The notes below the pieces were generated by a model. The model saw nothing but the letters and a program-made list of their open reading frames with translations, had not been told where the DNA came from and made no database searches. From an uncultured Acidobacteriota bacterium (GTDB taxonomy: Bacteria > Acidobacteriota > Blastocatellia > RBC074), in assembly GCA_902825875.1 (NCBI GenBank), contig CADECP010000005.1, positions 50,168-114,167 of the forward strand: a stretch of DNA of 64,000 nt, in the 5' to 3' direction. Position numbers and translations under genes: made by a program. The number at the start of each line of letters is the position of its first letter. The first letter of the stretch is position 1. Below, one piece after another: positions 57,827 to 57,866 of the stretch.

Positions 57827-57866
57827 TACTGTCTACTGTCTACTGTCTACTGTCTACTGTCTACTT
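57827..57866. repeat. (CTACTGT)x5.7 heptanucleotide tandem repeat immediately upstream of the hisS start codon
   Basis: ctactgtctactgtctactgtctactgtctactgtctact ends 4 nt before ATG 57871. Confidence 0.65.

Follow-up and report, generated by a model that had tools for sequence, protein, structure and literature searches.

Heptanucleotide repeats with an ACTG core at coding boundaries near hisS and an alcohol dehydrogenase gene of an uncultured Blastocatellia bacterium

Two tandem arrays of a heptanucleotide unit, CTACTG(T/A), were located in the window, a contiguous stretch of 64,000 nucleotides from an uncultured member of the Acidobacteriota (Blastocatellia), one ending directly upstream of hisS and the other running across the stop codon of a Zn-dependent alcohol dehydrogenase-family gene (ADH). 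Both are shown here to be part of a clade-wide class of heptamer arrays occupying intergenic DNA as far as the boundaries of coding sequences, and neither is a dedicated on/off switch. A switch specific to these loci, as implied by the original prediction, is not supported, since the arrays are one instance of a repeat class found throughout the clade. Our preferred reading, to which we assign a probability of about 0.6, is that both are hypervariable heptanucleotide simple sequence repeats (SSRs) of an ACTG-core class, NNACTGN, tolerated or used as leaders without a Shine–Dalgarno (SD) sequence and as spacers, not as switches. According to this reading, the class would populate the intergenic DNA of Blastocatellia and Pyrinomonadaceae to the edges of coding sequences and sometimes across them; its arrays would gain and lose whole 7-nt units, in steps that are seen between genomes and that probably arise by replication slippage (slipped-strand mispairing), and such changes would be tolerated where the reading frame is unharmed.

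The array in the hisS leader

The hisS array comprises 5.7 copies of CTACTGT without a mismatch and occupies positions 57826–57865 of the forward strand, as determined with TRF and by direct reading. The perfect heptamer copies described originally were thus confirmed, their position (given as 57827–57866) having been one base off; five bases, TCTTT, separate the array from the hisS ATG at 57871. TRF scored the homogeneity of the array at 100%, a value consistent with recent expansion. The hisS gene itself (57871–59151, forward strand) encodes a histidine–tRNA ligase of 426 amino acids, identified by the Pfam domain tRNA-synt_His and by best homologs named as Blastocatellia histidine–tRNA ligase. 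Many HisS models in the databases are N-terminally extended or truncated (411–474 amino acids), and arrays of this kind mislead gene callers, which then extend HisS models at the N-terminus and translate heptamers into ADH tails.

A promoter-like site, TTGGCT-16-(TG)cTACAAT, was detected by a promoter scan at 57719–57746 on the forward strand. It is sigma-70-like, with the −10 element at 57741–57746, and is conserved at orthologous loci. Near the inferred 5′ end of the leader lies a small hairpin, CAGGC-8 nt-GCCTG (57763–57780, forward strand), and both hairpin and promoter are kept in all orthologous loci with a HisS identity of at least 85%. Across loci L125–L141 and L208–L214 this 5′-proximal hairpin (CUGUCAGGC-loop-GCCUG) and the promoter are the conserved parts and the remaining leader is not; going by its conservation, the hairpin could serve to stabilise the 5′ end or have a regulatory function. 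Because the conserved promoter lies upstream, the array is placed in the 5′ UTR, of which it would form the 3′ third, i.e. the last ~45 nt of ~117 nt counted from an inferred transcription start. It is situated downstream of the −10 element and upstream of the ATG, outside both the −35/−10 promoter spacer and the open reading frame, and therefore reading frame and promoter spacing are unaffected by its copy number. A T-box or attenuator in the hisS leader was ruled out, as the leader gave no Rfam match at E ≤ 1 and contained no terminator-like site; a tRNA was the sole Rfam match in the window.

No SD-like motif was found within 20 nt 5′ of the hisS ATG, in agreement with the original prediction. 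SD-like motifs are enriched upstream of starts in the clade and occur at 40 of 107 well-defined starts, so that a hisS gene lacking one is ordinary here. Messenger RNAs without an SD sequence depend on an open start region. Both CTACTG arrays adjoin start codons and therefore sit where a ribosome-binding site normally would be, and three start-proximal arrays in forward orientation were found to precede genes that lack such a site, at distances of 5 nt (hisS), 7 nt (an alpha/beta hydrolase gene downstream of ADH) and 3 nt (an ABC ATPase gene with the unit GAACTGN). The last two, at the hydrolase gene and at the ABC ATPase gene at 26300, are the further copies at other 5′ ends by which the original prediction proposed to be judged. 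The predicted fold of (CUACUGU)6 amounts to −2.1 kcal/mol for 42 nt. The hisS initiation region (−40 to +20), at −2.5 kcal/mol, is the least structured among the 50 genes called in the window, for which the mean was −10.4 and the standard deviation 5.3 kcal/mol, and the hisS leader was predicted to fold no more stably than shuffled versions of it (z = −0.23). This low predicted structure suggests a translational role for the array. Initiation regions of array-free relatives are fairly open too, so the array may be functionally neutral. Under the preferred reading, the array would provide a pyrimidine-rich, essentially unstructured SD-less leader between the promoter and 5′ hairpin on one side and the ATG on the other; initiation would be SD-independent by virtue of low structure, possibly aided by ribosomal protein S1 or cold-shock proteins, and copy number would at most tune expression.

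Comparison of five lineages with HisS proteins 91–92% identical and with the same promoter revealed different leaders. L125 has 3.7 units (CTTCTGT CTACTGA CTACTGT CTACT); L138 and L208 have another heptamer, (CCRAYCA) in ~5 units, at the position of the array; and the array is absent from L209–L214 (four independent assemblies), whose 5′ UTR is about 62 nt long. Copy number at hisS therefore runs through 0, 3.7 (L125) and 5.7 (window) units, with 7-nt steps between related genomes, and the comparison of copy number called for in the original prediction thus revealed variation here as well as at ADH (3.7, 4.7 and 6.7 units). An inverted single unit, CAGTAG, lies at 57798–57803 (forward strand), 22 nt upstream of the array, and L125 has one at the same distance; the 18-nt segment that holds it is also missing from the array-free L209–L214. 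In orthologs at 85–87% HisS identity the leader carries degenerate CAACTGA/ACGACGA heptamers, and inverted CCAAAGN arrays are found in the hisS leader of L135. Since relatives at 91–92% HisS identity have either no array or another heptamer, the array is dispensable for hisS. On comparison of these sequences, the pre-ATG segment of hisS is a hot spot at which different heptamer arrays come and go. The occurrence of different heptamers at the same pre-ATG position, together with a bias towards ACTG, hints at sequence-specific selection or a dedicated mechanism beyond plain slippage. The hisS loci offer a natural allelic series at an essential gene (no array, 3.7 units, 5.7 units, another heptamer) behind the same conserved promoter, which makes both a role in SD-independent translation and mutation in unit steps testable by reporters.

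An assembly artefact was ruled out, since arrays were seen in independent NCBI MAG, JGI, ENA and Logan assemblies. The Logan contigs, which are k-mer based, of ERR3089231, ERR3089234 and ERR3089238 end exactly inside the hisS array (L001 positions 1–30; ends of L003 and L004); a 40-nt array of period 7 exceeds the k-mer length and so breaks the assembly graph. Exact look-ups of the AspS and ECH proteins led to such Logan contigs only, and HisS itself had no exact match on record. Arrays of this kind break short-read assemblies in general, with consequences for MAG contiguity. Other repeats were observed upstream of the hisS promoter, namely (GACCTAC)x5 with an inverted (TAGGTTT) partner in L126 (3200–3235 and 3283–3317) and a 9-nt (TAGGTCCTA) array in L133 (1–66); the whole ECH–hisS intergenic region is repeat-prone in the clade. 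At hisS loci from an unrelated clade (HisS 41–48% identical; L152, L156, L181, L190 and L192) ATACGCN, ATACTCG and GACTAAC arrays were present, and as that clade has heptamer families of its own at hisS, lineage-specific heptamer families appear to be widespread.

The junction between ADH and the hydrolase gene

The second array, identified by TRF and direct reading at 34332–34364 of the forward strand, has 4.7 units alternating between CTACTGA and CTACTGT (CTACTGA CTACTGT CTACTGA CTACTGT CTACT). Its extension over the last codons and the stop of ADH was as originally described. ADH extends from 33300 to 34352 (forward strand) and is read across the array as CTA CTG ACT ACT GTC TAC TGA, i.e. 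LLTTVY followed by the stop at 34350–34352. Units 1–3 thus supply the last six codons and the TGA stop of ADH, and the rest of the array makes up the entire intercistronic spacer apart from the 7 nt that separate it from the ATG of the alpha/beta hydrolase gene (34372–35016, forward strand), a start codon that the original prediction had missed. ADH proteins have a family-wide conserved C-terminus, ...K[TVI]LL, and the Leu-Leu codons CTA CTG coincide with repeat unit 1. Tails of the translated-heptamer type LLTT(V/D/G)... (LLTTVY, LLTTDY, LLTTGN and others) were found in 14 of 24 ADH orthologs.

Three natural variants of the junction were compared. L205, with an ADH 97% identical, has 3.7 degenerate units, a spacer of 12 nt and TAA as stop codon; the window has 4.7 units and a spacer of 19 nt; L206 and L207, with an ADH 91% identical, have 6.7 units and a spacer of 33 nt. 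In all three the ADH stop lies in unit 3 and the differences lie solely 3′ of it. When unit changes were simulated, those 3′ of unit 3 were silent for ADH, and loss of any of units 1–3 deleted the stop and gave an in-frame ADH–hydrolase fusion of 569 amino acids. The predicted effect of unit changes on the end of ADH therefore held in simulation but was not seen in the natural variants, which show selection against loss of the stop. In terms of the preferred reading, the array would have grown from the conserved Leu-Leu codons and would now serve as the end of the ADH coding sequence, its stop (in unit 3) and the spacer between the two genes, with selection holding the stop and the 3′ units free to vary.

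Adaptive phase variation, in which slippage at a contingency locus would reversibly switch or grade hisS translation and remodel the C-terminus of ADH, is in our assessment a very improbable account of these arrays. The 7-nt steps among relatives and the simulated fusion of ADH to the hydrolase are what such a locus would produce, and a heptamer repeat in a 5′ UTR is a proven device for graded phase variation at hmw1A of H. influenzae (PMC12721329). However, the hmw device requires 11 or more units as well as a long complementary arm, and hisS has 5.7 units and one complement of 6–9 nt (57798–57806). The position of the array, within neither promoter spacer nor open reading frame, and its dispensability, equally close relatives having none, also speak against the contingency locus originally proposed at hisS; at ADH the stop is untouched in natural variants. 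The genes concerned (hisS, the Zn-ADH-family gene, the alpha/beta hydrolase gene and an enoyl-CoA hydratase gene) are housekeeping or metabolic genes, not surface, virulence or restriction-modification genes, and repeats of this class are found beside many genes unrelated to them, at starts and stops alike. A repeat beside an essential gene, which had been thought unexpected, has a precedent (PMC4679880).

A palindromic element was observed twice near these genes, at 33953–34020 and 59156–59234, with the common sequence GGTAC(G/A)GAACCGGGAGCGGTAGCGAC(C/T)GGGT.... One copy forms the hairpin between hisS and aspS, with 33-nt arms that are 88% complementary. The second is inserted in frame within the coding part of ADH and is translated as ~GYGTGSGSDRVRSGKEITGALHR; the insertion is variable, being missing in orthologs of 318–320 amino acids and duplicated in P0007, and comparable palindromic in-frame insertions are known from Rickettsia.

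The repeat class and its paired forms in related genomes

The repeats in the window greatly exceed what chance would give: matches to CTACTGTCTACTG with at most two mismatches numbered 9 against 0.12 expected, and none of 100 shuffles reached 9. In 197 kb of unbiased clade loci period 7 was dominant, with 19 raw runs compared to 2–6 for periods 5, 6 and 8–10, and a strict periodicity scan of block-shuffled clade sequence returned zero period-7 arrays. An ACTG core was present in 6 of 14 clade arrays (p = 5e-5), and loci of other phyla had a heptamer family of their own, ATACGCN. Within the 64-kb window the CTACTG unit occurs at two sites only, beside other heptamer arrays.

A scan for (CTACTGW)3 using one genome per species found at least 120 loci. 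Among the matches listed, about half were from Pyrinomonadaceae, Blastocatellia and other Acidobacteriota MAGs, the others being from filamentous cyanobacteria (Microcoleus, Tychonema), Chloroflexota, Planctomycetota and further groups; many loci per Pyrinomonadaceae MAG were among those listed, e.g. at least 10 in SMAG_U3359. The commonest Acidobacteriota form among the matches listed was an inverted pair, (NCAGTAG)n - spacer - (CTACTGN)n, and cyanobacterial arrays among them were unpaired. At least 50 inverted pairs with spacers of 14–120 nt were present among the pattern-selected matches listed, a count that includes a few overlapping combinations at one locus and a few pairs from other phyla. 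The spacers were of two kinds, either GC hairpins between A and T runs or a conserved, directional core of ~58 nt. In IMG/VR, (CTACTGW)3 was also observed at 46 viral or proviral contigs (L215–L260), a few of them as inverted pairs, with ~1 estimated by chance. In the literature searched, the exact repeat strings led to no relevant mention of the CTACTG unit; the paired architecture in Pyrinomonadaceae is previously undescribed.

The position of arrays relative to genes was assessed by distances based on codon-model gene calls. Among the Pyrinomonadaceae matches listed, 29 arrays face a start codon, 11 of these ending 3–13 nt away from it, and 32 face a stop codon, most of them within −21 to +8 nt. 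The complete Acidobacteriota pairs listed (n = 36) have co-directional neighbours in 23 cases, convergent in 10 and divergent in 3, and the 3′ end of a gene adjoins 33 of them; this is the distribution of a gene-3′-end element, like REP elements or terminators. The ~58-nt core, AAAAnCCTTCG..CGAAnCG..GTCAGCGTCAGC..GCGGAGC, was observed between inverted (CAGTAG)n and (CTACTG)n at non-homologous Pyrinomonadaceae loci, 16 of those listed and from different MAGs (L009, L010, L017, L019, L023, L046, L075, L076, L080, L095, L096, L100, L106, L110, L113 and L116), its T-rich end pointing mostly toward the start of the downstream gene. No Rfam family matched the core, no consensus RNA structure emerged for it, and it may represent a dispersed element not yet described.

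The window also contains, at 26304–26386 on the reverse strand (TRF and boundary reading), a complete inverted pair with the unit GAACTGN, which fills the 87-nt spacer between genes for a MacB/FtsX permease (26388–27482) and an ABC ATPase (25617–26300), both also on the reverse strand. Its arms begin 1 nt after the permease stop and end 3 nt before the ATPase ATG (…GAACTGAGAACTGTGAACTTTTATG). From its position, a hairpin bridging stop and start in this way could enforce translational coupling.

Other hairpins observed in the window include one at 30573–30646 with heptamer-periodic arms (GGATGTT GGGTTTT GGATTTT / CAAAATC TAAAATC CAACATC), downstream of a gene ending at 30550. One of its arms is identical in L206 (4487–4508), and it is terminator-like but without a T-run. 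Imperfect palindromes of 8-nt-periodic CCGTCTCT/GAGAGACGG units at 1127–1198 and 31555–31618 make up one family, the latter sitting between convergent genes.

As the CTACTG unit is found mostly in inverted pairs around a core in Pyrinomonadaceae, the window arrays could be decayed halves of a REP/MITE-like element of the form (NCAGTAG)n - core - (CTACTGN)n. Such an element may form an intergenic hairpin that terminates transcription, stabilises mRNA or couples translation, and it is perhaps mobile. The number of inverted pairs among the pattern-selected loci, the core common to 16 listed loci, the gene 3′ ends beside 33 of 36 listed pairs and the complete GAACTGN pair in the window are consistent with this origin. 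The CAGTAG unit upstream of the hisS array in the window and in L125 could then be the vestigial left arm of an inverted pair, and its 18-nt segment is missing together with the array from the array-free relatives. Against this, both CTACTG arrays in the window are unpaired, neither the window nor 212 kb from its close relatives contained a match to the core model R1, and the hisS leader has neither a target-site duplication nor a clean insertion boundary. Sister lineages hold different heptamers at the hisS site, which argues for an origin in situ; the ADH array, for its part, was seeded by ADH's own Leu-Leu codons. We therefore consider descent from such an element rather unlikely for the window arrays, which have the unit, but not the element, in common with the Pyrinomonadaceae paired element.

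Another explanation holds that (N)NACUGN units are a cis-regulatory platform, bound by a single-strand nucleic-acid-binding protein that would drive or regulate the translation of a regulon. The idea has already been put forward for TAACTGA repeats (PMC4679880), which share the ACTG core enriched in the clade arrays, and weak experimental hints come from Nostoc heptamers near start codons (bioRxiv 10.1101/2022.06.06.494920). Several arrays end 3–6 nt before an ATG with T-rich junctions (TCTTATG, TTTTATG, TTCTATG), and the initiation regions lack SD motifs and are predicted to be unstructured. However, the array is dispensable at hisS, and arrays among the Pyrinomonadaceae matches listed have no bias toward starts (29 vs 32), unlike those of BOGUAY, the Orange Guaymas 'Maribeggiatoa' (147 vs 12; PMC4679880). 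A regulon of this kind is accordingly highly doubtful in our view, as is the involvement of S1, a cold-shock protein or another factor as its binder, the first two having been proposed earlier for TAACTGA repeats.

A broader proposition, which we hold to be unlikely, is that ACTG-core arrays (CTACTGN, GAACTGN, CAACTGA and TAACTGA) are a selected class of cis-elements spanning phyla and not slippage debris. If so, a single array would be a protein-loaded leader for SD-independent translation, and an inverted pair reaching from an upstream stop to a downstream start would form a hairpin between cistrons, by which translation is coupled or insulated. Acidobacteriota would then have an undescribed class of gene-boundary elements, with the directional ~58-nt core inside some of the Pyrinomonadaceae pairs.

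Comparison with known repeat systems

The preferred reading, of ACTG-core SSRs serving as SD-less leaders and spacers, can be set beside several systems, and the closest precedent of the window arrays is the TAACTGA class. Direct repeats of this heptamer are known from marine Beggiatoaceae, some cyanobacteria and Bacteroidetes (MacGregor 2015, PMC4679880). These intergenic arrays stop 1 to a few nt short of starts that lack a ribosome-binding site; some overlap the ends of upstream open reading frames, some precede essential genes, and their RNA is predicted to be unstructured (PMC4679880). Strains differ by 7-nt indels, repeat-free close relatives exist, and S1 and cold-shock proteins were proposed as binders (PMC4679880). 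In BOGUAY, 147 arrays versus 12 are directed toward starts and one inverted repeat was found among 170 sets (PMC4679880). The window arrays are likewise tandem, of 7 nt with an ACTG(A) core, intergenic, start-proximal without a ribosome-binding site, predicted to be unstructured as RNA and variable by unit steps, with some relatives array-free; one overlaps the end of an upstream open reading frame and the other precedes an essential gene. They differ in the unit, CTACTG(T/A), and in the host, a member of the Acidobacteriota (Blastocatellia). In contrast to BOGUAY, Pyrinomonadaceae, judged on the listed loci of these relatives and not on the source genome, show no preference for starts, and the inverted pair is the commonest form among the Acidobacteriota matches listed.

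The short tandemly repeated repetitive (STRR) heptamers of cyanobacteria were reportedly described by Mazel in 1990. Long simple sequence repeats (LSSRs) of 5–11 nt, with period 7 the commonest, are attributed to Mrazek 2007 as relayed in PMC4679880. The arrays studied here resemble STRRs and LSSRs as lineage-specific tandem heptamers at many intergenic sites, for which slippage is the assumed cause, and (CTACTGW)3 itself is present in Microcoleus and Tychonema genomes. Unlike the arrays in descriptions of STRRs, those of Acidobacteriota abut stops and starts tightly and have a paired architecture.

In H. influenzae, hmw1A and hmw2A carry an (ATCTTTC)n repeat in the 5′ UTR whose copy number varies between strains (PMC12721329). 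Base-pairing of eleven or more units with a G-rich arm creates a long hairpin, which RNase III cleaves, and expression of the gene, which encodes a surface adhesin, is inversely graded with unit number (PMC12721329). The hisS array is similar in being a heptamer SSR in an inferred 5′ UTR, with a copy number that varies between genomes. It differs in having 5.7 units, no complementary long arm and a housekeeping gene downstream.

REP and BIME sequences (REPINs) are intergenic palindromes of Proteobacteria. Like these, the Pyrinomonadaceae pairs and the element at 26304–26386 are abundant imperfect palindromes in short spacers, mostly by the 3′ ends of genes; unlike these, their arms consist of tandem heptamers, and the hisS and ADH arrays are unpaired. 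Tandem start-proximal heptamers, reported for decades from cyanobacteria, Beggiatoaceae and Bacteroidetes, are now extended to Acidobacteriota.
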